Below, in pieces: positions 19,078 through 60,976 of a DNA stretch of 64,000 bases. A program made the translations under genes and the position numbers. Below the pieces are notes generated by a model. It had not been told where the DNA came from, did not search any database, and was given only the letters and a program-made list of their open reading frames with translations. The number at the start of each line of letters is the position of its first letter. The first letter of the stretch is position 1. This stretch comes from an uncultured Dehalococcoidaceae bacterium (GTDB lineage: Bacteria > Chloroflexota > Dehalococcoidia > Dehalococcoidales > RBG-16-60-22), in the NCBI GenBank assembly GCA_964595455.1, contig CAZQQL010000002.1:725-64724 (forward strand), given 5' to 3'.

Positions 19078-19800
19078 TTATCTTCTCTCCTTATGTTCTT
19101 TGATGATCCGCTCGTTGTTCTCCATGTCGGTCACGTCCTTGCCCGTCACCGGGTGCTTGTAGTGGAACGGCAGGACATACCCGTACATGAAACGCGGGTC
19201 ATCGTAGTCGAACGGGATATCCGCCGGCGGGGGAATGTGCGGCCCCTGCGGGTTCGCCATGCCCTCTCGGATGGTGTTCGGCCAGCGCCACAGTTCATCC
19301 GGAATAGAAACCGTGTAGGGGATATACCAGCGAATGACGAGGAACTTCCAGACCCCGTCCTGCTTGATATATTCGATCTCATACACGCCGGCCACCCAGG
19401 ATTTCCTGAATGTGCCGCTATCGGCCGGCAGGGAGTGGGTTCCGAACGTATACCATCGACCCCAGGCCCTGTCGCCTTTCACGTCCACCACCCCGGCGAT
19501 CGGCATGACCTGGTGGAAGAACTCCGCCGGCTGGCCCGTACCCGGGTCATTGGTCTCGAAATACCGCCGCACCGCGTCCTTGCCAAAGTAGGCGCCTTCC
19601 AGCCAGTACAGGGCGGTCTCCGGGTGCTCGGCAAAGCAGTCGATGACCTCCTGCTTCATCATCCGCATGACGTAATAACTGTAGGCCCGCTGCAGCCGCT
19701 TGACCTGGTTGATGTCATCGAGATAGGCGTACTTCTGCTGCAGGTCGGTAACCTGGTTTTGCAGTTCCGTGATCCTGGCTTCCATTTGTTCCGGCGTCAT
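19078..19800 (-). CDS. NTF2/SnoaL-like domain protein with N-terminal coiled coil (240 aa)
   Basis: The N-terminus MTPEQMEARITELQNQVTDLQQKYAYLDDINQVKRLQRAYSYY is typical of SnoaL_4-like proteins. Confidence 0.45.
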   Translation of the reverse strand: MTPEQMEARITELQNQVTDLQQKYAYLDDINQVKRLQRAYSYYVMRMMKQEVIDCFAEHPETALYWLEGAYFGKDAVRRYFETNDPGTGQPAEFFHQVMPIAGVVDVKGDRAWGRWYTFGTHSLPADSGTFRKSWVAGVYEIEYIKQDGVWKFLVIRWYIPYTVSIPDELWRWPNTIREGMANPQGPHIPPPADIPFDYDDPRFMYGYVLPFHYKHPVTGKDVTDMENNERIIKEHKERR

Positions 19801-41589: not shown

Positions 41590-41725
41590 ACCGCCGCTCC
41601 TTTTATCTCTGAAACCGGGTTACAGCCGCATGGTACCGGACTGTTTAAAGGCTGTCAACAGCACTGATCAGATGTAACGAAAATTTCATGGCGCGAGACT
41701 TGATTTCACAGACGGAAAGGGTACA

Positions 41726-42333: not shown

Positions 42334-42376
42334 TTGACAAACAGCGGATACTGACGTAACATGTACGCGAAGGGAC
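42334..42376 (+). promoter_or_regulatory. promoter plus conserved leader box, copy A
   Basis: TTGACA (42334-42339), 17-nt spacer, TAACAT (42357-42362), then GTACGCGAAGGGAC. GTG start 8 nt further on. Confidence 0.45.
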
Positions 42377-42383
42377 AACAAAG

Positions 42384-42821
42384 GTGCGCATAGTATCATT
42401 TCCAGTCATCAACCAGAAACTCGATTTTCGCCAGGAAATCGAGATAACGTTCCAGTGTCCGGCCTGTTTTGCCATTGAGACGCTATTCATGGAGGAAGGC
42501 ATAATCACACGGACGCCGCACTGGACACAGGTGAAAGACCGCGTCTACCATCGCAACTGCCGGCAGCCGGCCCGGCTCATCAACATGTCGCGCCGTGTCG
42601 TCCTTACGCCGGCCGGCGCTATGGATGTTATGCTCCGGTTTATGCGGCAGCGGCGGGTGACGCCCGGCCAACTTGCGTCTCAAGTCGGTGTCAGCCACAT
42701 CACGGTGAAACGGTGGATTTCAGGCCGGTCCCGCCCCAACCGAACCTCAAGGGAACGCATTGCCGGTTACATGGGAGTACCGCTTAAGACTATATTTCCA
42801 CAGGAGATTTGTAATAAATGA
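42384..42821 (+). CDS. zinc-ribbon-like N-terminus fused to XRE-type HTH
   Basis: CPAC ... HRNC, then GQLASQVGVSHITVKRWISGRSRPNRTSRERIAGYMGVPLKTIF. The HTH is paralogous to those of 45231 and 46797. Confidence 0.6.
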   Translation: MRIVSFPVINQKLDFRQEIEITFQCPACFAIETLFMEEGIITRTPHWTQVKDRVYHRNCRQPARLINMSRRVVLTPAGAMDVMLRFMRQRRVTPGQLASQVGVSHITVKRWISGRSRPNRTSRERIAGYMGVPLKTIFPQEICNK

Positions 42822-43123
42822 TGTCCGCCAACAGTAGATTGCTGGCAACAGCGATCAGAAACCAGAGGATCCTGCATGGGTTCATGCAGACCGAGCTATC
42901 CCGGGTGTCCGGTATCCCGGCTGCGGAGATAAGCCGGGTGGAACGTGGCCGCCTTTTTCCCTCCGCGGAGTTTCTCATGAAAATCTCCGCTATCCTGGGC
43001 ATCGACCGCTCCCGGCTGCTAATGTGCGCCGCTTTCGTAGCCCTCGGTGAACCACGGATTAGACCGGGTTCGCTCTATGATATCCTCGATGCTTTCCGGT
43101 ATGTCTCCGGACTAACCGAGTAG
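42818..43123 (+). CDS. XRE-family HTH protein (101 aa)
   Basis: FMQTELSRVSGIPAAEISRVERGRLFPSAEFLMKISAILGI. Start overlaps the upstream stop (ATGA). Confidence 0.7.
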   Translation: MMSANSRLLATAIRNQRILHGFMQTELSRVSGIPAAEISRVERGRLFPSAEFLMKISAILGIDRSRLLMCAAFVALGEPRIRPGSLYDILDAFRYVSGLTE

Positions 43124-43238
43124 ATTATCGTTAGTACCGGTTGCAACCTGACAGGTCTGTCACGTAACATAGTAGTGTAAGTCTCCTTGTGCAGAATCGG
43201 GTAACGCGGCTTAATATCGGTGGCTTCGCAGAGGTAAC

Positions 43239-44180
43239 ATGTCTGAAAACAACGCTTCACGGATGATCGAATACGGTGAGAAGGGTGGGACCGACCCGGA
43301 CGGCCGTTATTCCCTGTGTTGCGCCATCGGCAACACGCCGCTTCTGAGACTCGGTAACGTATATGCCAAGTTGGAATGCCTCAATCCGGGCGGCAGCATC
43401 AAGGACCGGGTGGCGCTGGAGATCATCGAAAGCGCAGAACGGCGCGGCGAACTGAAACCCGGTTATACCATCGTCGAAGCCAGTAGCGGCAACACCGGTA
43501 TCTCCCTGGCCATGGTCGGGGCCATCAAAGGGTATAAGGTGGTCATCGTCATGCCGGAGAATATGAGCCACGAGCGGGTTCTCATTATGAAATCCCTCGG
43601 GGCCGAGGTATTGCTCACGTCAAAGAGCGGCAGCCTCAAGGAAGCCATCGAGAAAACCGAGGAACTCGCCCGCCGTCCGGACGTTTTCCTTGCCCGCCAG
43701 TTCGCCAACCCTGATAACTTCAAGGCACAGGAAAAAACCGGTGAGGAGATCATCCGGGAGATCGGCGCGTGCGATGCCGTCGTTGCCGGCGTCGGGACCG
43801 GCGGTACGCTGATGGGTATATCTCATGCCATGCGGAAGGTCAACCCGGACGTGAAAGTTATCGCCGTAGAGCCGGAAGAAGCCGCGGTGATGTTTGGCGG
43901 CAGCGACGTCAAGATACGCGAACACAAGATACAGGGCATCGGAGACGGGTTTATCCCCAAACTGATCGACATGGAAAAGGTCGATGAGGTCGTTACCGTT
44001 ACCAGTGAAGAAGCAATCGATACCACCAAGAGGCTTTTCCGGGAATACGGCATCCTCATCGGCATCAGTTCCGGCGCGAACATGGCCGTGGCGAAAAAGA
44101 TCTGCCGGGACTACGAAAAAGTTGCCACCGTGTTCCCAGACAGGGCGGAACGTTACCTGAGCATGGATCTGCTAAAGTAA
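43239..44180 (+). CDS. cysK: cysteine synthase / O-acetylserine sulfhydrylase (PLP-dependent)
   Basis: GNTPLLRL, LECLNPGGSIKDR (PLP Lys), SSGNTGISLA, and GTGGTLMG. Confidence 0.85.
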   Translation: MSENNASRMIEYGEKGGTDPDGRYSLCCAIGNTPLLRLGNVYAKLECLNPGGSIKDRVALEIIESAERRGELKPGYTIVEASSGNTGISLAMVGAIKGYKVVIVMPENMSHERVLIMKSLGAEVLLTSKSGSLKEAIEKTEELARRPDVFLARQFANPDNFKAQEKTGEEIIREIGACDAVVAGVGTGGTLMGISHAMRKVNPDVKVIAVEPEEAAVMFGGSDVKIREHKIQGIGDGFIPKLIDMEKVDEVVTVTSEEAIDTTKRLFREYGILIGISSGANMAVAKKICRDYEKVATVFPDRAERYLSMDLLK

Positions 44181-44909
44181 GCCCAGGCTTTCTATTCGTT
44201 CCTGCACGGCTTCCTCGGTGACCTGGTATTGCTCCGCCAGAATGGAGATATCCGGGCAGGCAGCCCGGCTTTTCTCGAACCATTTCTTCGGCATCAGGAT
44301 GTGCAGGGCAAAGTTGTCCGCCAGCAGTTCATTGAATACCCCCTTCGTGCTGCCCCGCTTTTTGAAGATAGGCGTTGCCTTGCAATGGGCCAGGACATGA
44401 AACGCTTCATGAAAAAGCGTCTCCCGCTGCTTGAAGGGGTTGTCGTTCGCATTCAGATAAATGACCCAGCCTTCTTTCGTTTTCCAGATCGCGCCATGGT
44501 AGGCCTTCATGGGGATGGTGCGTACTTCTATGTCACAGGAGCGGTCCATGATGGAAATCAGCGTCGAAGGCACCGGGGGGTTTTTGATTTTCCCTTTTTC
44601 CAGCCAGCTTTCCGAGAGCATTGACAGCAGTTCGTAGATCCTGCCCGGTTTCAGGCTCTCCAGGAAACCCGGGTTCGAACTCCGGCAGAAGGTCTCTTTT
44701 GCCTGACCGTCCGCACAGGAACTCCCGGCGGGACAGTAGCAGAGCGTGCTTTTGTCCTGCCGCTCGGCTGAGATGTTGTACATCGGGCAGGCGCATTTAC
44801 CGGTACTTTCCCGGAGCGAGCAGGTCCGGTATACCGGGCAACTCGTGCCGTCACCGGTGCTGACATAGTGCCAGAATTCCGTTTCCCATTCCATAGCGCG
44901 CGTCTGCAT
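44172..44909 (-). CDS. ImmA/IrrE-family zinc metallopeptidase with Cys-rich N-terminal region
   Basis: HEAFHVLAH (HExxH) in the C-terminal half. N-terminal 70 aa carry 9 Cys (SCPVYRTCSL..GKCACP..LCYCPAGSSC..FC). Lies downstream of an XRE gene on the same strand. Confidence 0.65.
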   Translation of the reverse strand: MQTRAMEWETEFWHYVSTGDGTSCPVYRTCSLRESTGKCACPMYNISAERQDKSTLCYCPAGSSCADGQAKETFCRSSNPGFLESLKPGRIYELLSMLSESWLEKGKIKNPPVPSTLISIMDRSCDIEVRTIPMKAYHGAIWKTKEGWVIYLNANDNPFKQRETLFHEAFHVLAHCKATPIFKKRGSTKGVFNELLADNFALHILMPKKWFEKSRAACPDISILAEQYQVTEEAVQERIESLGLL

Positions 44910-45029
44910 AACAATATCCTTCTTACGTCAATAACGGGATTCTTGCTCGACCGAGCGGACGCCGGTATACCAGCATCCGTCCTCCTCCCGATTTCGCAAA
45001 CGAATGAACCGCAGATAATGCTTAGGTGC

Positions 45030-45043
45030 GTTACTATAGTAAC
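45030..45043. promoter_or_regulatory. perfect 14-bp palindrome in the ImmA-like upstream region
   Basis: GTTACTATAGTAAC. On the minus strand it overlaps the spacer and -10 of a TTGCAA-N17-TAGTAA promoter-like pair. Confidence 0.35.
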
Positions 45044-45230
45044 CCATACGTAGTTGCAAAGTAATAAATCCGAACGGAAATAAGTTGAAAATGTATGACA
45101 TTTTTAGCGGATGCTGTCAGCAAGGAAGAAATGAATCAGCCCTTCGATAATGGAAACAATAGATATGTACGGACCACGGACGCGCCCGTACCATCAGGAA
45201 AGCATGGGGGCCGACGGGTGGAGGCTGACC

Positions 45231-45611
45231 TTATTGGTTCTGTTTTGGTGTACGCCGGCGGCGCTGTGCGGCCCGCTGCTGGCGGCGGCGCTCGATGAGG
45301 TCTTCGATCATGGTGATGATGTCCTCGTCAAGTTCCTGGGGGTATTTTTGCTGGGCGTATTCCCGGAATTCCGGCCAGGCCGTCGCCGGCATATCGCTGA
45401 ACTGTGCGATGTGGCCGGCCGCGGCCAGGACTTCTTCAACCGGGACGCCGGCATACTCGGCCAGGACACGGCAGGAACGGGTACTCGGAACGTCCTTACC
45501 GGTTAACCAACGGTGCATTGTGGCATGACTGACCTGGATGTCAGCGGCCAGCTGGCTGGCCAGTTTTTTTCTTCTTCTCATGAGGTCCTGGAGGAACTCA
45601 ATAATGTCCAT
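45231..45611 (-). CDS. XRE-type HTH regulator (126 aa)
   Basis: SQLAADIQVSHATMHRWLTGKDVPSTRSCRVLAEYAGVPVEEVLAAAGHI. Close paralog of 46797..47132. Confidence 0.7.
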   Translation of the reverse strand: MDIIEFLQDLMRRRKKLASQLAADIQVSHATMHRWLTGKDVPSTRSCRVLAEYAGVPVEEVLAAAGHIAQFSDMPATAWPEFREYAQQKYPQELDEDIITMIEDLIERRRQQRAAQRRRRTPKQNQ

Positions 45612-45640
45612 TCGTATCGCCCTCGTATCCTTGGGGAACC

Positions 45641-45690
45641 TTATATGTCCCTCTGTGTAAATGGTATAATAAATGTAATTTGCCTGTCAA
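45641..45690 (-). promoter_or_regulatory. promoter plus conserved leader box, copy F (minus strand)
   Basis: The minus strand reads TTGACAGGCAAATTACATTTATTATACCATTTACACAGAGGGACATATAA. It shares the 11-mer AGGGACATATA with copy B. Confidence 0.35.
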
Positions 45691-45733
45691 TATGGGGTAA
45701 CCTGCCATTACGTGCCGGGGTTTCCTCTAGCCA

Positions 45734-45778
45734 TTGACAAACAATGCTATCGGTGTTACAGTATGTACGCATACGCAC
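45734..45778 (+). promoter_or_regulatory. promoter plus conserved leader box, copy C
   Basis: CCATTGACAAAC (as in copy A, CTATTGACAAAC), TACAGT/CAGTAT as the -10, then GTACGCATACGCAC. Followed by the ACGTACGT palindrome. Confidence 0.4.
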
Positions 45779-45818
45779 ATGATACGTACGTTAGATAACG
45801 CTCTACGGTGAGGTACGT

Positions 45819-46709
45819 ATGAAACTGAGACAATCTATTATTCGCATTCTGCTCGGGGCTTTTTGCCTTTCACTATTTTCTCTTGCCGCCTGCGCGGATG
45901 CTCCCCCGGTTATTTCATCTGTCACGGCCGAAGCAGGTACCGTCCGCGGTGGTGATGAAGTGCGGGTCTCCTGTCAGGCGACGGACCCGGAAGGCGGCGC
46001 GCTGGAGTATATCTGGACCGCCAGCGCCGGAGACATCGTTTCTCAATCGCCTTTCGCGGAATGGACTGCCCCCGATGAGGCCGGACCTTACGAGATACGA
46101 GTCAGCGTACGGGACGGGAAAGGCAACGAAACGAAGGATGCTGTTATTGTTTATGTTGCCGCCAACCTGCCGCCGCGGATTGATAGCCTCCTCGCCGATC
46201 CATCTCCCGTCGGAGAAGGGCAGCAGTGTTTCCTGAAATGCGGCGCCGAAGATCCGGAAGGCGATACCATAACCTACAATTGGGAAACGGAAGAAGGTAC
46301 CCTGTCCGGGGCCGGGCCGGTCGTTTCCTGGACCACGCCTTATGATGTCAATTCTTCCGTCATCAAGGTCACGGTGACGGACATCCAGGGGCAGTCGGCA
46401 ACGATGACGGTGAATGTAAGCATCGTCCCCAACCATGATCCCAAGATAGACATGCTTACTGCCACTCCCCGGAGCATGACGCCTGGCGTCGAGAGCATTT
46501 TGCAATGTGTCGCTGTGGATATCGATGGCGATCCATTGGAATACTCCTGGACGGTTGACGGCGGTACACTGCACGGTTCCGGCAGTGACGTAACGTGGAC
46601 CGCGCCGGAAGAATGCGGCACGTACATCGTGACAGTGACGGTAACAGACGGGCGGCATGGTAAGGCAGTCCAGGAACAGGTCTTGAGGGTCGCGAAATCC
46701 GGGGGCTGA
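45819..46709 (+). CDS. lipoprotein with three tandem ~95-aa Ig/PKD-like repeats
   Basis: Signal peptide with lipobox (FSLAAC). Three repeats share PPxI..[LV].A.P......[VL].C.A.DP[ED]GD.[IL].Y.W....G.[LI].G.G..V.WT.P...G.Y.[IV].V.V.D. Confidence 0.65.
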   Translation: MKLRQSIIRILLGAFCLSLFSLAACADAPPVISSVTAEAGTVRGGDEVRVSCQATDPEGGALEYIWTASAGDIVSQSPFAEWTAPDEAGPYEIRVSVRDGKGNETKDAVIVYVAANLPPRIDSLLADPSPVGEGQQCFLKCGAEDPEGDTITYNWETEEGTLSGAGPVVSWTTPYDVNSSVIKVTVTDIQGQSATMTVNVSIVPNHDPKIDMLTATPRSMTPGVESILQCVAVDIDGDPLEYSWTVDGGTLHGSGSDVTWTAPEECGTYIVTVTVTDGRHGKAVQEQVLRVAKSGG

Positions 46710-46796
46710 GGGGGCTAACATTTCCGGCGGTCTGCCGGTAAAACTCCTGTAATGATCCGGAAGGTCCACACGAAGTGATAGTGCGGGTTGCGTGTG

Positions 46797-47132
46797 TCAG
46801 TCGCTAGGATTCTGCTGCCGTTCTCCCGTGTAGGCGGCTGAGGGAATATGGCCGGCGCTGCGCAAGATTGTTTCCAGAGGCGTGCCGCTGAACTCGGCCA
46901 GCCGGTAGCATGACCTTGCTGAAGGAACATCGTCTCCCTTGAGCCAGCGCCCCACGGTGGCATGGCTTACTCCCAATTTCAAGGCCAGCCGATTGGCTGT
47001 CAATTGCCGGTCACGTAATAGATCCGCCAGCAGAGTCCGTATAGGAACGTATACATTACTCATACGGACATTGTCCGCCATAACTGCCGTTTTGTCAATA
47101 GTCACCGCCTGTTTCGTGCTTGAAAAGTCCAT
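46797..47132 (-). CDS. XRE-type HTH regulator (111 aa)
   Basis: NRLALKLGVSHATVGRWLKGDDVPSARSCYRLAEFSGTPLETILRSAGHIP. Confidence 0.7.
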   Translation of the reverse strand: MDFSSTKQAVTIDKTAVMADNVRMSNVYVPIRTLLADLLRDRQLTANRLALKLGVSHATVGRWLKGDDVPSARSCYRLAEFSGTPLETILRSAGHIPSAAYTGERQQNPSD

Positions 47133-47139
47133 TACCCTC

Positions 47140-47152
47140 TGACAAATTGTCA
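47140..47152. promoter_or_regulatory. 13-bp palindromic operator candidate
   Basis: TGACAA-A-TTGTCA lies 8 nt upstream of the 46797..47132 start codon and 24 nt from the CCCTTGACAACG -35 box of the divergent promoter B. Confidence 0.45.
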
Positions 47153-47175
47153 GGAATATTTTATATAAAATGCCC

Positions 47176-47218
47176 TTGACAACGGGCTGGCACGAAAATA
47201 TAATGTACGCAAAGGGAC
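47176..47218 (+). promoter_or_regulatory. promoter plus conserved leader box, copy B
   Basis: TTGACA (47176-47181), 17-nt spacer, TATAAT (47199-47204), then GTACGCAAAGGGAC. Confidence 0.5.
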
Positions 47219-47372
47219 ATATAGAGACCCTAAAGGAAATAACAAAATAATAAGCCAGTCAACAATCCCCCTCCACTCTTGAAAATGACCGCGGATGGTT
47301 GGTTCTCACCAGTCCCGCACAATGTTCCTGACTATTGAAAAAAGGGAGAATTGTCCCTGAAAGGAGGCACGA

Positions 47373-47795
47373 TTGAACGAACAGGTAATCATTGTCCACC
47401 GCTGTAGCGTGTGCAGCTCTCTCGTTACCATGTTATGCCGCCCGATCGAGAGGTTCTCCTGCCCGGTATGCGGAAAAAGAGCTTTTTGTCGCCCCAAACC
47501 AGCGGCTGTTAACCACGGCAGAAATTCTACGCCGATTGAGGTCATGATGAAACAGACAATATCGTATGAAAGCTATCGTGAATACCTGCTGGCATTTCTC
47601 AGGGAAGCTGATGATGATCTCGCGGAAAAAAGAAAGAGGTTTACCACCTTCCTTCATATGGACCAGCAAGACCTCGACCATAATTCGGATTTCGTAAGCT
47701 TCCTTGTCGCGACGACCGATGAACTCATCGATCGCGCTGCCAGACTCAATTCCATGGCCAGGACCATGGCGCTTGCCGGTACGGACGCTGCGTAA
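47373..47795 (+). CDS. zinc-ribbon protein with helical C-terminal domain (140 aa)
   Basis: TTG start 5 nt after AAAGGAGG. CSVC..(17)..CPVC zinc ribbon. No family recognised. Confidence 0.5.
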   Translation: MNEQVIIVHRCSVCSSLVTMLCRPIERFSCPVCGKRAFCRPKPAAVNHGRNSTPIEVMMKQTISYESYREYLLAFLREADDDLAEKRKRFTTFLHMDQQDLDHNSDFVSFLVATTDELIDRAARLNSMARTMALAGTDAA

Positions 47796-47948
47796 GTCTC
47801 TTTTTTTACCGTAAAGCTTACGCGAGCGGACAACGAATGTACGCGATAGCGACACAAAAGGAGGTGATGACTATCGGTAGCAACAAAATTCAAGGTTGAC
47901 CCCCGGTTGTTCTCATTCTCATCTATTGAACAGGAGGGAAGAAAAGTA

Positions 47949-50900
47949 ATGAAGAAGACCAAATATCCAAAATGGTCGCGCCTGCTGATTGCAGCGCTGG
48001 TGCTCGTGACCCTGCTCATGACGGCGCCGGCGGCCATTCTTGCTCAGGACAACAACAGCACTTCCTGTTGCCCTGACTACTGCAAGCTCCAGGTAAACAT
48101 TGTGATACCTGATTGCGTCCAGCCTTTGCCGCCTGAAGAAGGCTGTCCATGCGACGTCATTTGCGATTACTATGAAGGCAATCCCTGCGTCTGGGTTTAC
48201 GAGGGTGAAACCTTCTGGGTAAACGCTACCGTCGCCAGGCCGGACAATATGGGCGACGCCATCGAGAACGTCTACGCCGGCATCTGCCTTGCAGGCGGCT
48301 TCCGGCCGGCTTTCACCGTGGAAGAAGCTGTGATGATCGATGGACCCAACGCCTGCCTCGTTGATTGCTGCCCGGTCCAGGGTCCCTTTACTCTCAACGG
48401 CTGCTTCGACGTCAAGGACATATGGTGGAAGGTCCGCTGTCTTGACGCCGGTCCTGTCTACATCACGGTCAATGCCTGGGTTGGCGAAGAGAATAATGAC
48501 CTTGACGTCATCCAGCAGATTGACGGTGGATGCTACGGTGATTCCGATACCATCGTGGTTAAACAGATCGAACGGCCCGTCGAGTATCCCAACCTCGAGG
48601 TTGAGATAATCGAGTGCCCGGACTTGCCCGTAATGCCCGGTGATATCTATGGTGTCAAAGCCCGCGTCTGGAACCGCACCGATCAGCAGATCGACTGCGT
48701 CTGGGCGTACATCGATATCTGCGGCCCGGCCGAGCTTACCAGCAGCAATCCTTTCTTCTGGTATGCCGGCAACATCCGGGCCAACTCTTCTGTAGAGGTC
48801 GCCTGGATGGTGCGGTGCACCGGAGACCAGTTCCCGCTCGGCGTTAACAACCTCGATTCCGCTCCATACTATAGCAACGGCGATGTCAAGATATGCGTCG
48901 ATGCCTGGTACTGGGGCCAATGGAAATACAATGAAACCAAAGCCGATTGCTGTTGTGTGCACCAGATAGTACCGGCGCAGTTACTCGCCACCCTCACCTC
49001 CTCCGTGGAGAAAGTCTGCACTGAGTGCGACAACTGCTTCGATGTTACCCTCGATGTCACCAACCTTTCCCGCTACATCCCCGTTGAGGAAATCGTGGCT
49101 GAACTCCACATCGAAGGCGAAGCTTTCATCAACAACAGCGCTCTGGTCCCGTTGAACACTATCTCCTGCAACGGCGCCACTTCCTACACCTGGCAGGTCT
49201 GCTGTGAAGATGTGGGCGATGTTTACCTCTGGGCGAGCCTGACCGGATATGATCCCGTGTTCGATTGCCAGGTCTGCGCTGAAACGAACCCCGCCTACGT
49301 CAGCCAGGAATACCCGCTCATGGTGACCGTCCAGGAACCATTCCCTTACTCGCAGATAAGCGTCGGACAGACGTTTGAATTCACCTATCGCGTGACCAAC
49401 TGTCAGGATGACGGCGATGAAATGGACGGCATCTGGGTCGGCCTTGACCTGCGTGACGCCCATTGCGTTACGCCGGCCAGTCTGGTTGTCCAGGTGGTTC
49501 CTGATTGTACCACCGGCATTCAGCCCTTCACGATTCAGGCCGCTCCTCTCGGGAATTGCTCGAACATCTATGAAGCGTACCTCGACTGCATGATGGACTG
49601 CTGCTGGGCGGACATCACCTGGCAGTTGACCTGCACCTGCTCCGGCATGTGCGATCTCCCGATGCCGCAGCCCACAATCACGACTGTCACCGTCGATTCT
49701 GTCCCGAACGGCGGGTTCCCGGATAGCTGCGGTGACTGTGTACCCGTTTGCCCTGATGACATCCTTGGCTACGCCTATGTCGGCGATCGCGCTGAAGCCG
49801 CATGTGGAACAGGGTTCTACGAGGATGGACTGGTTGATTACTGGACAACCACCATTCGTCATGGCGGCGCGGGCGGTTACCGTGCTGAACTCGGGTACGG
49901 TCCCGGAGACCGCGAAGAATACTTTACCGGCGGCTCGGTCCCCTGGCCGAACGGTGATCCCATGCATGTCATCCTCGAGTACGATGATGACGATGGGGAA
50001 GCCGAACTGACCGTCTACAATACCGTGTTCGGTGATGACCCGGTCGAACTCGAGTATGATGTGGACGGCGCCGGCGGCAGGATCGTCATGACCGCCAAGA
50101 CCAGCAATAATCAATATGGTGTTGTCGAAGCCTACAACATCGAACTCAATGGCCTGCCTCTGGCCGGCTGCAGGGAAAACGGCTGCTATGAACTCTATGC
50201 CCAGGGCACCGGTTATCCGGGTGAAGGGGCCCGCGACGTGCAGCACATGGTCATCGACTGCATCGACGGCAGCTTCCTCCTTGAGTTCGACCTCCTCTTC
50301 GCCTGGGACGGCAATACCGCTGATGAAGGCCCGGCCCTCACCATCAACGTCGAAGATGCGGAAGTCGTAGATTGCTTCTTCGTCGGCGACTACGATACCG
50401 TGACCGTTCATCAGATGGACCCTCCGTGCCTCGCTGCTTCTATCGACGCTTATGAAGGCGCCTTCAGCGTCGGCAACTTCGAATGCATGACCTCCGTCAA
50501 ACGCTCCAGCGATGCGGCTGTCGCCGTCGGTGAATACTTCACCGTCGTCGTGCCCGTCGCCAATACCGGCGAAGCTACCGCGGAAGACGTCTGCGTCAGC
50601 CTCGCTGCCAACGGTCCGGCTTACCTCGTCAGCGGCAACCTGACCGTTTGCCTCGGTGACATCCCGTGCCACGGCGCCGCTAAGGCCGTCTGGGAGTTCC
50701 AGTGCTGCGGCGAAGGCGCCATGGGATTCACCATCGGCAGCCTGATCGGCTCCGATGCCAATTCCGGTCTGCCGATTGCCGGCAACTGTCTCGATACCGG
50801 CTGTGCCATCTACGTCGACCAGATCCCGTTGACGGTGGAAGTAATTCAGCCTGCCAACTGCACCGAATTCATCGAGGGCGATGCTTTCTCCGTCAAAGCC

Positions 50901-52583
50901 CGCATCTGCAACAACAGCACATTGGGCATCTCCCTGGATGATGTCTATGCCGCGCTTTGCTGGTTCGGCGAAGGCGATATCGCTCTGAACTTTGGTCAGT
51001 GGAACCCTGTTTGCCTGGACACACTCTCCCCCGGAGAATGCGCTGAGGCTACCTGGCAGGTCTACTGCTGCAAGGCCGGCGATGTCACCTTCAAGATCGA
51101 TGTCTGGAACGCCTGTGATCCCTACCTCGACATCGAATCCTGTCCCGTCACTATCCACCAGTTCGAACCCGGCCGCATTTGCTGCCACATCCTGTCTCCG
51201 AAACTGAACGACTACGACGAATGCTACGAGTTCTGTGAGTATGAAGCCTACATCGCTACCGGCCAGGAATTCGCTGTCACTGCCAAGTTCTACAACTCCG
51301 GCGACCGCGCCTTCTGGATCGAGGACTTCGGTCTGGCTGCCTGGGATGATGGCGACATCGATATTCTCGGCGACCCGCAAGCGAACTGGCCCGATCCGGC
51401 AAATCCCTATCGCCTTATGCCGAGAGAATCCGTGATCATCAGCTGGGACGTGGTTTGCACCGATGCTGGTGACACCGACCTGAAAGTCTGGGTCGAAGGT
51501 TCTGACGACATGAACGGCCAGGACAGCTGCTGCTCCGAGGTGAGGATCATGCAGTATCCCGCGGCCCATCTGGTCGTCGATATAACCGACTATCCGATTG
51601 AAGACATCGAAGTTGGTTCCGATTTCTCGGTGACCGCCAGTGTCTGCAATACCGGCGATGCTGACGCCTGGGAAGTCAAAGCGACCCTTTCCGTTAACCC
51701 CGCCGGCAGCGTGCGCCTCAGCGACGCTGATGCCACCGGCAGCTATACCAAGGACCTCGGCAACCTCATCGGCCACTCTGTCAACGAATGTGATGAGGCA
51801 ACCTGGGTTCTCAACTGCAAGGAAGCCTGCAACAGTACCATCACCATAACCGCAACCGGTTACGATGAATACGGGTATGAAGTGTTCCAGGTTTGTGGGA
51901 CCGGAGTCATCGGTACCGAGAACCCTGGCTTCTACCAGATAACCTGCTGTGAACTCCAGCTTGCCGGCAACCCCGGCGCGGAAATCCCGTCCCGGTTCAT
52001 CGAGCCGGACAGCGTCACCGTCAAGCAGGTTGGTGAAGGCGGCGAGGATCCCATCGAGCCTCCGGAAACCGAATTCATCGCACTTGGCGAAGGCTGGAAC
52101 CTCGTCTCCATGCCGTGGTACATCGAACCGTGCGATCGCGCCTGCGCTGCTCTGCTCGTTGATATCATCGACTGCGTGGATGCCGTCTACTACTACGATG
52201 AAGTGACCCGCACCTTCAAGGCCTACTTCCCGCATGAAGACCCGCTGGCCAGCAACCTGGCCGCCATCTGTGATGGTCCCGGCTACTGGTTCCTCATGAA
52301 CGATGATTGCGATCTCTGCATTGAAGGTAGTCTCTTCCCCGGAGGCGGCGGCGCTCCTCCCACCTACTTTGTCGGCGCTACCGGCTTCAGCCTCATCGGC
52401 CCGAGGATCGGTGATGAACCCATGCTTTGCTCTGAATGGCTCGAAGGTCTCAGCTACGGCATGGTACTGGGCTTCGATAACGAAGCCAATGCCTACTACA
52501 TCATCGACCCCGAAGAAGACATGGTCTACCCCGGCCAGGGCTACTGGGTATTCTTCACGGCTACTGGCGAACGAACACAGTAA
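47949..52583 (+). CDS. giant secreted Cys-rich repeat protein (1544 aa; CARDB/Ig-like modules; shared C-terminal module)
   Basis: ATG preceded by AGGAGGG. Signal peptide MKKTKYPKWSRLLIAALVLVTLLMTAPAAILA. At least eight modules end in W.[VL].C..(A)G.: IWWKVRCLDAG, VAWMVRCTG, YTWQVCCEDVG, ITWQLTCTCSG, AVWEFQCCGEG, ATWQVYCCKAG, IISWDVVCTDAG, ATWVLNCKEAC. They are preceded by V.N.G...A-type strands (e.g. VTASVCNTGDADAWEV). Confidence 0.7.
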   Translation: MKKTKYPKWSRLLIAALVLVTLLMTAPAAILAQDNNSTSCCPDYCKLQVNIVIPDCVQPLPPEEGCPCDVICDYYEGNPCVWVYEGETFWVNATVARPDNMGDAIENVYAGICLAGGFRPAFTVEEAVMIDGPNACLVDCCPVQGPFTLNGCFDVKDIWWKVRCLDAGPVYITVNAWVGEENNDLDVIQQIDGGCYGDSDTIVVKQIERPVEYPNLEVEIIECPDLPVMPGDIYGVKARVWNRTDQQIDCVWAYIDICGPAELTSSNPFFWYAGNIRANSSVEVAWMVRCTGDQFPLGVNNLDSAPYYSNGDVKICVDAWYWGQWKYNETKADCCCVHQIVPAQLLATLTSSVEKVCTECDNCFDVTLDVTNLSRYIPVEEIVAELHIEGEAFINNSALVPLNTISCNGATSYTWQVCCEDVGDVYLWASLTGYDPVFDCQVCAETNPAYVSQEYPLMVTVQEPFPYSQISVGQTFEFTYRVTNCQDDGDEMDGIWVGLDLRDAHCVTPASLVVQVVPDCTTGIQPFTIQAAPLGNCSNIYEAYLDCMMDCCWADITWQLTCTCSGMCDLPMPQPTITTVTVDSVPNGGFPDSCGDCVPVCPDDILGYAYVGDRAEAACGTGFYEDGLVDYWTTTIRHGGAGGYRAELGYGPGDREEYFTGGSVPWPNGDPMHVILEYDDDDGEAELTVYNTVFGDDPVELEYDVDGAGGRIVMTAKTSNNQYGVVEAYNIELNGLPLAGCRENGCYELYAQGTGYPGEGARDVQHMVIDCIDGSFLLEFDLLFAWDGNTADEGPALTINVEDAEVVDCFFVGDYDTVTVHQMDPPCLAASIDAYEGAFSVGNFECMTSVKRSSDAAVAVGEYFTVVVPVANTGEATAEDVCVSLAANGPAYLVSGNLTVCLGDIPCHGAAKAVWEFQCCGEGAMGFTIGSLIGSDANSGLPIAGNCLDTGCAIYVDQIPLTVEVIQPANCTEFIEGDAFSVKARICNNSTLGISLDDVYAALCWFGEGDIALNFGQWNPVCLDTLSPGECAEATWQVYCCKAGDVTFKIDVWNACDPYLDIESCPVTIHQFEPGRICCHILSPKLNDYDECYEFCEYEAYIATGQEFAVTAKFYNSGDRAFWIEDFGLAAWDDGDIDILGDPQANWPDPANPYRLMPRESVIISWDVVCTDAGDTDLKVWVEGSDDMNGQDSCCSEVRIMQYPAAHLVVDITDYPIEDIEVGSDFSVTASVCNTGDADAWEVKATLSVNPAGSVRLSDADATGSYTKDLGNLIGHSVNECDEATWVLNCKEACNSTITITATGYDEYGYEVFQVCGTGVIGTENPGFYQITCCELQLAGNPGAEIPSRFIEPDSVTVKQVGEGGEDPIEPPETEFIALGEGWNLVSMPWYIEPCDRACAALLVDIIDCVDAVYYYDEVTRTFKAYFPHEDPLASNLAAICDGPGYWFLMNDDCDLCIEGSLFPGGGGAPPTYFVGATGFSLIGPRIGDEPMLCSEWLEGLSYGMVLGFDNEANAYYIIDPEEDMVYPGQGYWVFFTATGERTQ

Positions 52584-52609
52584 ACAAATAATCCGAGGAG
52601 GGTGCAACA

Positions 52610-54382
52610 ATGAATTGGAACCTGTACAAAACCCGCACACCGGGCACCCGGAGAACGCTGGCAGGAGCCCTCGTGCTCCTGCTGGCCCTCGGATTGCTGG
52701 TCGCTTCCGCAATCCCTGTGCTGGGTGTATCTCTGGACCCGGGACACACATTCTATGGAGTGGCAACCATCAATGGAGCGGCGGCTGCTGACGGAGCGCT
52801 GGTGGAAGCTAAGATTGGGGCCACCGTCATGGCCTCGGCCTATGTTGACGAAGATACCGTCGCCGGACAGTACTGGCTCATGGTCCCTAAGGATGACAGC
52901 CAGACTGCCGAGAAAGACGGCGGCGTCCAGGGCGATACCGTTGACTTCTACGTCGACGGCACCTGGGCGGCCAGCTATATCTTCTTCAATCCGGATGACT
53001 CGACTACCGGCTACGAAATGAGCACGCGTGTCGACCTCGCCGTAACCGCCGCCGAACCGGAAACCTATACCCTCACCGTGACCTCCACCGGCTGCTGCAC
53101 GATCACCGTGGAAGACCCCTACGTGGTGATCGGCACGATAGCCGCCGGGGATACTGACGACTTCGTCCTGGATGAGGACACGGTCGTTACTCTCATCGCC
53201 AATATCACTACCACTTGTCAGTTCGACGGCTGGACCGTGGATGGCGTTGACTGCGCCAACAATCCTACTACCGTCACCATGGATGCCGACCATACGGTAG
53301 TCGCCTATTGCACCACCGTCGAACCCCCCGTGACCTACGAACTCTATATAGAATCGATCGGTTGTGGTGATATCGCTATGACAGTGGGAAGCTTCACGTT
53401 GATGATCCCCGGAGGAACAAGCTCCACTCATGATGTAGCAGAAGGAGCAGTTGTTGAACTCGAGGTCGTCAATACCGATACCTGCCAGTTCGACGAATGG
53501 ATCGTCGATGAAGTCGCCACTACTGATAATCCTGTTTACATCACCATGGATAGTGACCACAGTGCTACAGGCTATTCTACAACGGTCGAACCACCTGTCA
53601 CCTACGAACTTACGGTTACATCAGTCGGCTGCTGTCCGGTGACCATCTCCTGGTGCGATACCTGTTCCGAGACAGTCAACACTTACAATACCAAAACACT
53701 GGAGTTCAATGAAGGAACGGTCGTCACCCTCACTGCCGGGTGCAGTACGTACTGCGAATTCATCAACTGGGTGGTGGATGGTGTTGGCGTCTACGATAAT
53801 CCCATCACTGTTACCATGGACGCCGACCACAACGTCACCTCCTGCTGCCAGATCACCGGCGTGGTTATCAATCAGGTCTATCTGAAATGCGGCTGGAACA
53901 CGTTCTCAGTGCCGATCCTCCTTGACGAAGCGATCGATACCTGGGGCGAATTCATCGAATTCAACGACCTGGATATCGGCTTGTTCCTCTCATACGATCC
54001 GATAGCCAAAGCCTGGATCCCTGGGGATCTGGCTACACCGCTGAAGCCGCTGGATGGTTACTACGTCTACATGAACGACCCCGGCTACGCGAAAATCGTT
54101 CCGAACACGAATGGCTCGGATTATCCGGTGAAAACACTGCAGCCCGGTCTCAATCTCGTCGGTGTGGCAACACTGCATGACGAGATCAGCATCTACGAAT
54201 TCCTGTATATCACGGACTGGGAGGTGATCTTGAGCCCGTACATCAATTCTTCCGGTTGGACCGAGGCTTTCAGGACATACGAATACACCGAAACGCCGAT
54301 GGTGGAAATGGGCCGCGCCTACTGGGTCTACATGGAAACCACGGATGATCTCCTCGGCTTGACCTCGACACCTGTCAACTAG
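52610..54382 (+). CDS. secreted protein with three InlB-B-repeat-like modules and the shared C-terminal module (590 aa)
   Basis: SD GAGGAGGG. N-terminal signal/TM. Three ~90-aa repeats: TY.L.[VI].S.GC......, then G..V.L.A......C.F..W.VDG....NP..[VI]TMD.DH. The C-terminus aligns with that of the giant protein (GWN..S.P, GY[WY]V.M). Confidence 0.7.
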   Translation: MNWNLYKTRTPGTRRTLAGALVLLLALGLLVASAIPVLGVSLDPGHTFYGVATINGAAAADGALVEAKIGATVMASAYVDEDTVAGQYWLMVPKDDSQTAEKDGGVQGDTVDFYVDGTWAASYIFFNPDDSTTGYEMSTRVDLAVTAAEPETYTLTVTSTGCCTITVEDPYVVIGTIAAGDTDDFVLDEDTVVTLIANITTTCQFDGWTVDGVDCANNPTTVTMDADHTVVAYCTTVEPPVTYELYIESIGCGDIAMTVGSFTLMIPGGTSSTHDVAEGAVVELEVVNTDTCQFDEWIVDEVATTDNPVYITMDSDHSATGYSTTVEPPVTYELTVTSVGCCPVTISWCDTCSETVNTYNTKTLEFNEGTVVTLTAGCSTYCEFINWVVDGVGVYDNPITVTMDADHNVTSCCQITGVVINQVYLKCGWNTFSVPILLDEAIDTWGEFIEFNDLDIGLFLSYDPIAKAWIPGDLATPLKPLDGYYVYMNDPGYAKIVPNTNGSDYPVKTLQPGLNLVGVATLHDEISIYEFLYITDWEVILSPYINSSGWTEAFRTYEYTETPMVEMGRAYWVYMETTDDLLGLTSTPVN

Positions 54383-54397
54383 ACTGAAAAAAGAAAT

Positions 54398-54424
54398 CCG
54401 GGGGCTCCTCTATGGAGCCCCCGG
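54398..54424 (+). other. intercistronic 11-bp stem-loop
   Basis: CCGGGGGCTCC-TCTAT-GGAGCCCCCGG with no U-tract. It is followed by AAGGAGG and the ATG at 54443. Confidence 0.4.
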
Positions 54425-54442
54425 AAACCATAAGGAGGCAAT

Positions 54443-55225
54443 ATGTTGAAAAGACGGATTCTCTTGCCACTTGCTGTCACGATCTGCCTGGTGCTGTTCG
54501 CCGCCGGACTGGTACAGGCCTCATCTCCCCTGGAGGCTCCTCAGTTCCATGCATTCGGGGGCGATGTGACCATCAACGGCAGTCCCGCACCCATAGGGAC
54601 GGAGGTCAAAGGAGTGGCTGAAGGGGTTATTCTCGGTTCCAGGTTCGGGAATCCCAGGATCACCAATGTCGTAGGAAAATACGGTCAGTCCGATGCCAAC
54701 AAACTTGTGGTGCAGGGGTTGCAAAACGGAGACGCTATCAAGTTCTACGTCAATGGCGTTGAAGCCGACCAGACTGCGGTTTTTTCTTCCATGGGGATTT
54801 CCACCCTTGACCTCACCGTCACGATAGAAGAAGGTTCCGGTGGTGGCGGTGGTGGTGGCGGTAGTTCTTCCGGCGGCAGCGGCGTCGATGAAACCCCGAC
54901 TACTACCCAGGCCGCGGCAACGACTTCGACTGGCGCCACGCAAACGACATCCGGCGTAACGACGACATCCGTATCGTCCGGCCCAACCGATACCCAGCCT
55001 GCCCAGACGACAAAGTCCGTGGTTGGTCCGGTCCAGACTACGCAGTCCGGAGCGGAACAGGGCCAGATAGCCGGGGTGACCACTACCCCCGCTTCCACTC
55101 AAGCCGCCCCGTCTGGCAGTGACACCGGCGATGGCCCCAACTGGTGGCTCATCGGCGGAATCATCGGGTTCGCGTTCGTGGCGGGGTCCGGCTGGTTTGT
55201 CGTTCGTCACGTACGGCGGTACTAG
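54443..55225 (+). CDS. secreted protein with Gly-run, Thr/Ser/Gln-rich linker and C-terminal TM anchor (260 aa)
   Basis: Signal peptide. The N-terminal domain is homologous to that of the 590-aa protein (F.G.VTING..A..G..V ... GD.[IV].FYV.G). Then GSGGGGGGGGSSSGGSG, a T/S/Q-rich stretch, and finally WWLIGGIIGFAFVAGSGWFVVRHVRRY. Confidence 0.65.
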   Translation: MLKRRILLPLAVTICLVLFAAGLVQASSPLEAPQFHAFGGDVTINGSPAPIGTEVKGVAEGVILGSRFGNPRITNVVGKYGQSDANKLVVQGLQNGDAIKFYVNGVEADQTAVFSSMGISTLDLTVTIEEGSGGGGGGGGSSSGGSGVDETPTTTQAAATTSTGATQTTSGVTTTSVSSGPTDTQPAQTTKSVVGPVQTTQSGAEQGQIAGVTTTPASTQAAPSGSDTGDGPNWWLIGGIIGFAFVAGSGWFVVRHVRRY

Positions 55226-55236
55226 CCGTGGAGACA

Positions 55237-55283
55237 GTCGAGGGGGGCTGCCAGCCCCCCGGCCGCAGCGCTCCCCCCTCGAC
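55237..55283 (+). terminator. GC-rich hairpin at the end of the surface-protein operon
   Basis: GTCGAGGGGGG (55237-55247) pairs with CCCCCCTCGAC (55273-55283). Followed by a moderately T-rich GTCCCGTTGGTTATTAT. Confidence 0.35.
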
Positions 55284-55425
55284 GTCCCGTTGGTTATTAT
55301 ACACCTCATGCAGGAGATTGAGCAGGGTGTTGTCATCCCGGAACCCGATGTTAGGACGGAGGACCTGTCATCATCATGCCCGGTAGGAAAATGGTTAGAC
55401 CTGGGCGGTACCGGCCATTCTTCCC

Positions 55426-55467
55426 TTGACAACGCTTCGGAGCGGGGTACAATGAACGCATAGGGAC
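55426..55467 (+). promoter_or_regulatory. promoter plus conserved leader box, copy D
   Basis: CCCTTGACAACG (identical 12-mer to copy B), 16-nt spacer, TACAAT (55448-55453), then GAACGCATAGGGAC followed by a second ACGCATA. Confidence 0.45.
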
Positions 55468-55515
55468 GCATATTGTACGTTTCAAGTAACCGGAACGGGA
55501 CTCAGGAGGTATTGT

Positions 55516-56688
55516 ATGAAGCTCGCTATCATCGGGTTGGGACAATGCGGCTGCAACATCGCGGACATTTTCTACGATGTCAGCAATTACTCCCAGTCCA
55601 TCTTCAACCGCCGTATCAACATCGTCACGGATACCTTCGCGGTCAATACGGACGAGACAGACCTCGGCGGGTTCAAGCACATCCCTAAAGATAAGTCTCA
55701 CCGGATTCTCATCGGCAACATGTCAACCTTCGGGCACGGCGTCGGCAAGATCAATACAGACGCCGCCGAGATCATCAAATCGGTCAATTCAGTCGTGATA
55801 GACACCGTTCTCAGGTCTGCCAAGTTCCATGAAAGCGATGCCGTGCTTGTCATCGCCAGCAGCGGCGGCGGTACCGGCTCCGGCACCATCGGCTGGACCA
55901 TACGGGAACTCAAGGACAGGACGGATAAACCGGTCTATGCCCTGCTCATTCTCCCGTTCGCGTTCGAGGAGCGGGGCGATACTTCCTATGCCGTCATCAA
56001 CAGCGCTACCTCGCTCAATACCGTGACCAAGTACGCGGATGCCGTTTTTCTGTTCGATAACGAGGGCCACCGCCAGATCGGCAACCACCTCTCCCGCACC
56101 TTCAAGGACATCAATGAAGAGATTGCCATGAACTTTTACGACCTCTGCTGCGCCGGCGAGGAAAAGAAACAGAAATTCGTCGGTAACAAAGTTGTCGATG
56201 CCGGGGACATCAAGCAGTCCCTGGCCGGTTATTCCGTCATCGGCCGCGGCGAGGTCCACCTCCCCGTGCTCCGGCTGGGAAAGGGTAACTACCGGCAGGG
56301 CATCAAGGACAACAGCCTTGTCTTCACCGCTCTCAAGCAGGCGGAGACTAATCTCGGCCTCGGCGTCAGTCTCGATCATGCCCGGCGTATCCTCGTGCTG
56401 ATCACGAGTCCCAAGGACTGCCTTTCCACGACCGTGATGGAGGAAATATTCGGCTACCTGGACAGGAAAGCTCCCAAGGCCGTTATCCGCATCGGGGACT
56501 ACCCACGCCGGGACCGGGAAATATCGGTCACGCTCATCGCCTCGGAACTGGTCCGGCTCAGCCGTCTGGAATACCTCGTCATGCAAGCGGAAGCCCTCAT
56601 CAAGAAGAGGGACAACCTGCGCCGCGAGACCGATAACGAGATGTACCTCATGCGCGAGTTCAGCCGCAACATTCCGACACTGGACTAG
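55516..56688 (+). CDS. divergent FtsZ/tubulin-superfamily GTPase (390 aa)
   Basis: T1 loop IIGLGQCGCNIA. FAVNTDETDL (compare FtsZ NTDAQAL). T3-like GHGVGKINTDAAE. Tubulin signature SSGGGTGSGT (nt 55861-55887). LPFAFEERG (compare FtsZ PFxFEG). FLFDNEG. T7-like NKVVDAGD. Strong SD CAGGAGG. Confidence 0.8.
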   Translation: MKLAIIGLGQCGCNIADIFYDVSNYSQSIFNRRINIVTDTFAVNTDETDLGGFKHIPKDKSHRILIGNMSTFGHGVGKINTDAAEIIKSVNSVVIDTVLRSAKFHESDAVLVIASSGGGTGSGTIGWTIRELKDRTDKPVYALLILPFAFEERGDTSYAVINSATSLNTVTKYADAVFLFDNEGHRQIGNHLSRTFKDINEEIAMNFYDLCCAGEEKKQKFVGNKVVDAGDIKQSLAGYSVIGRGEVHLPVLRLGKGNYRQGIKDNSLVFTALKQAETNLGLGVSLDHARRILVLITSPKDCLSTTVMEEIFGYLDRKAPKAVIRIGDYPRRDREISVTLIASELVRLSRLEYLVMQAEALIKKRDNLRRETDNEMYLMREFSRNIPTLD

Positions 56689-60940: not shown

Positions 60941-60969
60941 TTGACAACCTACACGGAACCGTGTAAAAT
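60941..60969 (+). promoter_or_regulatory. promoter of mutL (leaderless-type geometry)
   Basis: TTGACA (60941-60946), 17-nt spacer, TAAAAT (60964-60969), then 7 nt (GTCCGCA) before the ATG at 60977. Confidence 0.45.
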
Positions 60970-60976
60970 GTCCGCA

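Follow-up and report, generated by a model that had tools for sequence, protein, structure and literature searches.

In Deinococcus, the repressor DdrO binds a palindrome around transcription starts and is cleaved by IrrE (PMC6868357). Its operator, known as the RDRM (radiation/desiccation response motif), is 17 bp in length (PMC6868357). Helix-turn-helix (HTH) repressors are also coupled to M78 anti-repressor proteases, as two-gene switches, in ImmR/ImmA of ICEBs1 and phage-like elements and in CapH/CapP of the cyclic-oligonucleotide-based antiphage signalling system (CBASS). The operators of phage 434 are 14 bp long, their outer 4+4 bases are conserved, and a region contains several of them (PMC1636474). 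The stretch of DNA analysed here, referred to as the window, comprises 64,000 nucleotides of an uncultured Dehalococcoidaceae bacterium (contig CAZQQL010000002.1, positions 725 to 64,724). It contains seven related sites within 42.3-55.5 kb, six on promoters and one promoterless, which lie among genes for XRE-type regulators, an M78 protease, surface proteins and a CetZ-like tubulin (Table 1). With its gene pair, HEXXH motif and palindromic predicted operator at starts that include the regulator's own, the locus is structurally of the XRE/COG2856 class. The Dehalococcoidia are hard to grow and few genetic tools are available for them; to our knowledge, almost nothing is known of their transcriptional regulation. 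No paper on the operator or the module in Dehalococcoidia was found in the literature, nor anything relevant on Dehalococcoides promoter or operator motifs.

The element is likely to be a near-consensus sigma-70-type promoter followed by a two-part predicted operator. The first part, O1, is a 14-bp dyad, GTMC-N6-GKAC, which starts directly after the -10 hexamer (2 nt further on at promoter C). The half-site is GTMC, and the O1 sequences of the window are only partly symmetric, in the form GTAC-N6-GGAC. O1 is usually flanked by T and A (T-GTAC...GKAC-A), so that the last T of the -10 hexamer is shared. The second part, O2, is a weaker 14-bp site that starts 21 bp after the start of O1, which gives the order -10 hexamer, O1, 7-bp spacer and O2. 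GTNC is present at offset +21 in six of the seven window sites, and at no other offset from -45 to +55 (offset 0 aside) does it recur at two or more sites. On the usual distance from -10 hexamer to start, and not on mapped starts, O1 would span about -6 to +8 and O2 about +16 to +29. Similar to the cI/Cro operators of phage 434 (and P22), the centre of the sites is variable and they stand side by side overlapping promoters, where HTH_3/XRE-type dimers bind in the phages (PMC1636474). The half-site here is GTAC/GTCC instead of ACAA, and each promoter has a pair of sites after the -10 hexamer in place of a three-site bidirectional switch.

A sequence-only reading of the window had described a G[TA]ACGC..AGGGAC box linking six sites, and had left open whether it was an operator or a conserved 5' leader. 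The box is a real shared motif and corresponds to O1, the first of the two tandem dyad sites. The strings quoted for A (42334), B (47176), C (45734) and D (55426) on the forward strand and for F (45690) on the reverse strand are all present, as are the 12-mer CCCTTGACAACG common to B and D (47173 and 55423) and the 11-mer AGGGACATATA common to B and F (47213, forward; 45652, reverse). The sixth string, GGACAACGAATGTACGCGATAGCGAC, had been taken for a compressed promoter at 47838-47863. It lies ten bases to the left, at 47828-47853, and is part of an O1-O2 pair without a recognisable promoter. A new site at the promoter of the XRE gene 46797-47063 brings the total to seven.

The 14-mer box alone, with two mismatches allowed, is not above chance in number (6 matches versus 4.6 expected). 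The pattern TTGACA-N15-19-TAnnnT-N0-3-GWACGC has four matches in the window and none in 100 dinucleotide-preserving shuffles. As the short box alone is not significant, the signal resides in a box at a fixed place behind a near-consensus promoter. A scan of 41.5-57 kb for consensus promoters returned eight sites with at least 10 of 12 matches, six of which have the box directly after them: B (12/12), D (11/12), A, C, F and 47098-47070 on the reverse strand. Under a tandem model (O1 of at least 9 bits with GTNC at +21), the 64-kb window contains six sites versus 0.4 expected, the expectation being 24 O1 matches of at least 9 bits, each with a 1/64 chance.

The distribution of the box was followed outside the locus. 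No match of at least 11 bits to the position weight matrix (PWM) was found in the window outside 42-56 kb, and none of at least 13 bits in about 110 kb of other Dehalococcoidales contigs, which were fetched via CetZ homologs. A strict promoter-plus-box pattern gave two true matches in 596 Gb of genomes, the orthologs of A and D in a related Dehalococcoidaceae metagenome-assembled genome (MAG); a third match, on an Oscillospiraceae contig, looks like chance. The same pattern had 0 matches in viral contigs. In the metagenomes of the Joint Genome Institute (JGI) it matched five contigs, of which four (L006-L009; comparison loci are denoted by L numbers) have a convincing promoter and O1. It had been argued that a box upstream of many unrelated housekeeping genes would speak against a regulon, and no such distribution was seen among the window promoters, the 110 kb of Dehalococcoidales DNA or the related MAG. 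Confinement to the locus thus holds for the window at 11 bits, for one related MAG with the strict pattern and for about 130 kb of relatives, and fails at the four metagenomic contigs. By these scans the element is rare and is no general promoter feature, yet it is not strictly unique to the locus. The four contigs (40-47% G+C) carry ATTGACA-N17-18-TAnnnT-G[TA]ACGC..AGGGACA before unrelated genes, among them those for an XRE protein, a SEC-C-motif miniprotein and a 264-aa protein.

The -35 and -10 hexamers and O1 are kept in the orthologous loci of three other Dehalococcoidia assemblies. These are the Dehalococcoidaceae MAG CAZPSP01 (L003, L004), a 1.35-kb ENA contig (L010) and the ENA contig k119_1652870 (L019, L028), a syntenic relative whose proteins are about 70% identical. 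The alignment of orthologous intergenic regions, a check proposed by the sequence-only reading, gave an identity of 81% for the -10 hexamer, 79% for O1 and 55% for O2 over eight promoter pairs that are not mutually independent. Over the same pairs, identity falls to 42% in the -35/-10 spacer, 41% in the 7-nt spacer and 36% in the next 10 nt. With the spacers at about 40%, the constraint on O1 is as strong as that on the -10 hexamer. In the A ortholog of L004, all 14 positions of O1 are retained versus 9 of 17 in the spacer, and the alignment upstream of the -35 hexamer is essentially random. The B ortholog of L010 retains 12 of the 14 O1 positions, and O1 of the D ortholog in L003 reads GAACGCGTAGGGAC. 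Promoter D is kept only in the close relatives of the window and in the L028 lineage.

The most informative orthologs are those of L019 and L028, where O1 becomes a perfect GTAC-N6-GTAC palindrome at A (GTACGCTAGAGTAC), at the XRE 46797-47063 promoter (GTACCTATGAGTAC) and at D (GTACGTAAGGGTAC, in L028). The XRE ortholog has the order TTGACA-N17-CACAAT-GTACCTATGAGTAC and an identically placed ATG (CACAAT-GTACCT-ATG). At B, the L019 ortholog has a mirrored O1, GTCCCCTAGGGTAC (GTCC...GTAC versus GTAC...GGAC in the window), followed by a 7-nt spacer and GTACTCTAAAGTTA. The orthologs of F (TTACGTGAGGGTAC and GTTCGTACCAACAT) and of C (GAACGCGTACGTAC and GTTCTGTATATAAC) are likewise separated by 7 nt. 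Palindromic O1 sequences and a mirrored asymmetry argue for a DNA operator rather than an RNA leader or a general promoter consensus. Of the two possibilities that had been left open, the operator is therefore favoured, by the dyad, the second site at 21 bp, the conservation at the level of the -10 hexamer, the mirrored ortholog and the promoterless copy. The tandem model finds seven sites in L019 and L028 together (32 kb) versus 0.6 expected. Two extra tandem sites of L019, at 19543-19577 and 15254-15288, have no counterpart found in the window; one is beside a response-regulator gene and the other is before a gene for a 1268-aa surface protein which is absent from the window locus.

Three local HTH paralogs share the motif G-V-S-H-x-T-V/M-x-R-W: the C-terminal domain of the Zn-ribbon-HTH protein 42384-42821, XRE 45231-45611 and XRE 46797-47063. 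XRE 42818-43123 is of a different type from these three. XRE 45231-45611 has 1784 homologs, and among the top matches listed identity is 55-93% and most proteins are 120-130 aa. A Peptidase_M78 gene follows the XRE gene of this type on the same strand in every context fetched (L019, L022, L024, L025 and L026), overlapping it or within 45-450 nt. Judged by gene order, XRE and M78 genes stay paired in five unrelated contexts across Dehalococcoidia, and with the identity among the matches listed these contexts make the pair look chromosomal. In control contigs (132 kb), the tandem model finds four sites versus 0.7 expected, three of which are the own promoters of XRE-M78 pairs (L024, L025 and L026). 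As the control sites fall on such promoters, the operator appears to belong to the 45231-type XRE family, which agrees with the earlier proposal that the local paralogs are the candidate binders. The window lineage would then seem to have expanded both the regulator and its sites.

The start codons of the regulators are closely tied to the sites. At A, O2 opens with the GTG start codon of the Zn-ribbon-HTH gene. The ATG at 47063 is 7 nt after the -10 hexamer GACAAT, and with the same layout in L019 the mRNA of XRE 46797-47063 is probably leaderless. In L022 and L026, a leaderless ATG is placed in the centre of O1 (GTGCCTATGAGCAA and ATACCTATGAGTAC), and O2 (GTCCCTGT...) begins 21 nt after the start of O1. 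The sequence GTCCCTGTAGTTTC, which elsewhere is both O2 and codons 5-9 of the leaderless XRE gene, is non-coding in L025 (3900-4030), where it is located in the 5' untranslated region (UTR) of the XRE gene, 22 nt after O1, with a second, coding copy downstream. As L025 keeps the O2 sequence as non-coding DNA, operator function is separable from coding constraint.

The window M78 protein contains the HEXXH motif as LFHEAFHVLAH, which is conserved in L019 and L022, and it matches the PADLOC CapP model at 3.6e-12; the PADLOC scan gave no convincing match for the other locus proteins. Its N-terminal domain is Cys-rich and conserved (WExELWxYVSxGDGxxCP...). The position of the Pfam match (Table 1) leaves no room for a C-terminal GAF-like domain of the IrrE type. 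The AlphaFold2 model of XRE 45231-45611 (predicted local distance difference test score 82) consists of a five-helix HTH domain, a linker and two C-terminal helices. The C-terminus, WPEFREYA..ELDED.ITMIEDLIERRR, is nearly invariant in 40 homologs. The N-terminal domain of CapH is among the fold matches of the model, and a sequence search of the PDB returned generic HTH matches only, plus CapP at E 0.14.

Similar to DdrO/IrrE, the locus pairs an XRE protein of about 125-130 aa, composed of an N-terminal HTH and a helical C-terminal part, with an adjacent M78 metalloprotease gene. A palindromic operator around the predicted start of a small regulon, including the gene of the repressor itself, is a further shared feature. 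There are several differences. The operator here is a tandem of 14-bp GTMC-N6-GKAC sites and not the 17-bp RDRM, and the protease has an N-terminal Cys-rich domain in place of the C-terminal GAF-like domain of IrrE. The predicted targets are surface proteins and a tubulin-like gene instead of DNA-repair genes, and expansion of the regulator has given three paralogs, in addition to a fourth XRE. Similarity to DdrO/IrrE in sequence and fold is weak. ImmR/ImmA and CapH/CapP share the two-gene organisation of HTH repressor and M78 anti-repressor protease, whereas the present pair has no mobile-element or defence genes nearby. No phage or integrase family was found among the locus proteins scanned, and relatives show synteny of the locus at an amino-acid identity of about 70%.

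It is likely that the XRE paralogs repress a local regulon through the tandem operators, possibly with relief by the M78 protease. Dimers of at least one local XRE-family HTH protein would bind O1 and O2 cooperatively; the candidates are 45231-45611, 46797-47063 and the HTH domain of 42384-42821, with the unrelated XRE 42818-43123 also possible. Starts that are 21 bp apart, or two helical turns, place the two sites on one face of the helix and so suggest that two dimers bind cooperatively. Binding would block open-complex formation or promoter escape at otherwise strong promoters. The match of these promoters to the consensus at 10-12 of 12 positions, together with coverage of about -6 to +29, points to the position of a repressor rather than an activator. 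The regulators would repress themselves through promoter A, promoter F and the leaderless promoter at 47098. Further predicted targets are the PKD lipoprotein (C), the Zn-ribbon and giant surface-protein genes (B and the internal pair) and the CetZ-like tubulin (D). As the least certain step, and by analogy alone, M78 may inactivate its partner XRE on some signal, which would lead to derepression. The earlier proposal that these units form one regulon gains support from the shared operator architecture, its conservation and the XRE-M78 association, which are consistent with it.

A number of points weigh against this model. The four metagenomic contigs carry the same O1, so the regulator-operator pair would extend beyond the locus, and further regulon members may be encoded outside the window. 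The PWMs score the very sites from which they were constructed. O2 is weak at B and is absent from the L019 ortholog of the XRE 46797-47063 promoter and from the four metagenomic sites. At the XRE promoters it overlaps conserved codons (V-P-V/I), where conservation may be partly coding. The M78 gene is 320-450 nt from its XRE gene in the window and L019. DdrO chains rank 2, 4 and 6 in the fold search of the XRE model, but weakly (E 3e-3 to 7e-3, template modelling score 0.46). The recognition helix of XRE 46797-47063 is identical in the window and L019 despite right half-sites of GGAC and GTAC, respectively. Lastly, site architecture, conservation and the XRE-M78 association are read from the DNA, and from this sequence-based support binding, repression, proteolytic relief and the extent of co-transcription are inferred.

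The similarity between sites might instead reflect general promoter architecture, with the box as a discriminator or initial transcribed sequence. O1 is indeed locked to the -10 hexamer at nearly all sites, an extended -35 sequence, ATTGACAA, is common to several promoters, and mutL has TAAAAT-GTCCGC. This explanation is very improbable, since TTGACA-N15-19-TAnnnT occurs six more times in the window (2645, 2681, 9084, 13506, 26136 and 41658) without a box, the 110 kb of other contigs have none, and three of the four tandem sites in the 132 kb of controls are at XRE-M78 promoters. In addition, one copy is promoterless (47818), C is offset by 2 nt, and neither a dyad nor a second site at +21 plays a part in recognition by RNA polymerase. 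The relatedness of the mutL promoter, which the sequence-only reading had raised as a caution, extends to the left half-site GTCCGC; its O1 score is below 9 bits and mutL was rejected as a regulon member. An action of the box in RNA, as a shared 5' leader serving as a processing or stability signal or as the site of an RNA-binding protein or small RNA, has hardly any probability either. Transcripts would include O2 in full and the right half of O1, and the 5' UTR of B has a TGTCCCT near the ribosome-binding site, complementary to AGGGACA and conserved in L010. The left half of O1, however, is upstream of the predicted start, and the mirrored B ortholog of L019 keeps the DNA dyad while changing the RNA sequence. 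In L010, AGGGACA is changed to GAGGACA without compensation in TGTCCCT, and near the ribosome-binding site of D there is a GGGAC of the same sense, which cannot pair. The predicted fold of the B leader is no more stable than those of shuffled sequences (z = -0.27), and there are 0 Rfam matches at gathering score.

Common descent of the sites by local duplication or as a mobile repeat, without shared regulation, would account for the 73% identity of F and B over 40 nt and for regulators that are themselves paralogs. It fails to account for -35/-10 spacers and flanks that are unrelated between sites, nor do longer repeat families link them. Orthologs keep O1 like the -10 hexamer but only about 40% of the spacer positions, the composition of the locus is not anomalous, the window has no tRNA genes and viral contigs gave no match; on these grounds the odds against simple duplication are very long. 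A real operator bound by the unrelated XRE 42818-43123 or a distant regulator, with no part for M78, is unlikely, if less so than the other alternatives. The metagenomic site of L009 drives an XRE gene resembling 42818-43123, the recognition helix of XRE 46797-47063 is unchanged between lineages with different right half-sites, and one extra tandem site of L019 is beside a response-regulator gene. Set against these are the control tandem sites, which occur at 45231-type XRE-M78 promoters where no 42818-type gene was called, and the leaderless starts inside O1, which are typical of autoregulated repressors. Repression by the local XRE paralogs accordingly remains the preferred model. A more far-reaching extension of it, in which the XRE-M78 pair is a Dehalococcoidia-wide stress or redox switch, a counterpart of DdrO/IrrE with a Cys-rich protease sensor, and repressor duplication and operator spread brought the tubulin and the giant surface proteins under its control, is doubtful. 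If true, it would amount to a signal-triggered programme of envelope and cell-shape remodelling.

The locus provides a fully specified, testable cis-element, with 14-bp dyads, a fixed geometry and named candidate regulators. With it, an uncharacterised XRE-M78 module of wide conservation acquires defined putative targets, and a first regulatory handle becomes available on a bacterial CetZ-like tubulin and the neighbouring surface proteins. The operator-promoter cassettes could serve in heterologous reporter assays.

Table 1. Genes, promoters and predicted operators of the 42-56-kb locus (window positions; O1 and O2 are the first and second 14-bp sites)
Feature	Position	Strand	Details
Promoter A	42334..42397	+	-35 TTGACA 42334-42339; -10 TAACAT 42357-42362
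Operators of A		+	O1 GTACGCGAAGGGAC 42363-42376; O2 GTGCGCATAGTATC 42384-42397
Operon under A	42384..43123	+	Zn-ribbon-HTH 42384-42821 overlapping XRE 42818-43123; Pfam HTH_31/HTH_3
Peptidase_M78 (ImmA/IrrE/CapP-like)	44172..44909	-	downstream of XRE 45231-45611; Pfam PF06114 1e-15, residues 126-239 of 245
XRE regulator, 126 aa	45231..45611	-	Dehalococcoidia family paired with M78; under promoter F
Promoter F	45626..45690	-	-35 TTGACA 45690-45685; -10 TACCAT 45666-45661; order TTGACA-N18-TACCAT-TTACACAGAGGGAC; drives XRE 45231-45611
Operators of F		-	O1 TTACACAGAGGGAC 45660-45647; O2 GTTCCCCAAGGATA 45639-45626
Promoter C	45734..45799	+	-35 45734-45739; -10 TACAGT 45757-45762; drives PKD-repeat lipoprotein 45819-46709
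Operators of C		+	O1 GTACGCATACGCAC 45765-45778, offset +2 from -10; O2 GTACGTTAGATAAC 45786-45799
XRE regulator	46797..47063	-	start probably 47063 (88 aa, MSNVYVP...), not 47132 (111 aa)
XRE 46797 promoter (new site)	47035..47098	-	-35 TTGACA 47098-47093; -10 GACAAT 47075-47070
Operators of XRE 46797 promoter		-	O1 GTCCGTATGAGTAA 47069-47056; O2 GTTCCTATACGGAC 47048-47035
Promoter B	47176..47239	+	-35 47176-47181; -10 TATAAT 47199-47204
Operators of B		+	O1 GTACGCAAAGGGAC 47205-47218; weak O2 GACCCTAAAGGAAA 47226-47239
Promoterless internal pair	47818..47852	+	O1 TTACGCGAGCGGAC 47818-47831; O2 GTACGCGATAGCGA 47839-47852
Surface-protein genes	47949..55225	+	giant CARDB/DUF11 47949-52583; InlB-B-repeat 52610-54382; membrane-anchored Gly/Ser/Thr-rich 54443-55225
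Promoter D	55426..55488	+	-35 55426-55431; -10 TACAAT 55448-55453; drives CetZ-like tubulin 55516-56688
Operators of D		+	O1 GAACGCATAGGGAC 55454-55467; O2 GTACGTTTCAAGTA 55475-55488

Promoter B would drive the gene of the Zn-ribbon protein (47373-47795). Its transcription probably continues into the surface-protein genes downstream, putative regulon members behind B and the internal pair. Synteny of the surface-protein genes is seen in L019/L028. The internal pair is located between the Zn-ribbon gene and the giant gene and is conserved in L010 at 1085-1119. Directly after it, and before the giant gene, there is a mini open reading frame (ORF), MTIGSNKIQG*, at 47867-47899, with a strong Shine-Dalgarno sequence (AAAGGAGGTG). 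L010 has a 3-codon ORF (MFI*) at this place, preceded by the same ribosome-binding site. A long G+C-rich hairpin (GTCGAGGGGGGCTGCCAGCCCCCC...CCCCCTCGAC) at 55226-55300, 3' of the 260-aa gene, is near-identical at L003 2117-2200; the next ~110 nt past it are deleted in the related MAG. Its probable role is that of a terminator between the surface operon and promoter D.

The CetZ-like tubulin (Pfam Tubulin and CetZ_C) has 1207 homologs at E<=1e-10. Nearly all of the top 120 are 388-396 aa, and the few with names are from Dehalococcoidales or Chloroflexota. The homologs occur in varying genomic contexts (L011-L018, L027-L029), sometimes directly behind a surface-protein gene. The protein looks like a member of a widespread bacterial CetZ-like family; CetZ-like proteins in Dehalococcoidia have already been recorded as sparse groups (PMC9871819).

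Several candidates were tried and set aside. A PWM match at 54587 is within coding sequence and without O2, and is probably chance. GTAC-N6-GTAC at 41721, over the start of MauE, has no promoter or O2, and about one such occurrence is expected by chance in 64 kb. The palindrome TGACAAATTGTCA (47142-47154) was considered as an operator and is not conserved in L010. A CetZ-linked element was rejected, as CetZ orthologs of 79-58% identity in L011, L013, L014 and L016 are without the box. The target motif of a restriction-modification system does not account for sites that cluster after -10 hexamers in one locus. Neither the RDRM (compared with PMC6868357) nor the LexA box (GAAC-N4-GTTC) fits in spacing and sequence.

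The mutL promoter (60941-60979) consists of TTGACA at 60941 and the -10 hexamer TAAAAT at 60964-60969, followed 7 nt on by the ATG at 60977 and a canonical MutL N-terminus. As mutL and XRE 46797-47063 both look leaderless, mRNAs of this kind do not seem to be rare in the organism. At 2645-2681, a stretch of 37 bp contains two promoter-like sites that point towards each other (TTGACAAC...TTGTCAA on both strands). The surrounding 2-4 kb stretch has a G+C content of 45%, and a second low-G+C stretch (42%) is located at 12-14 kb.

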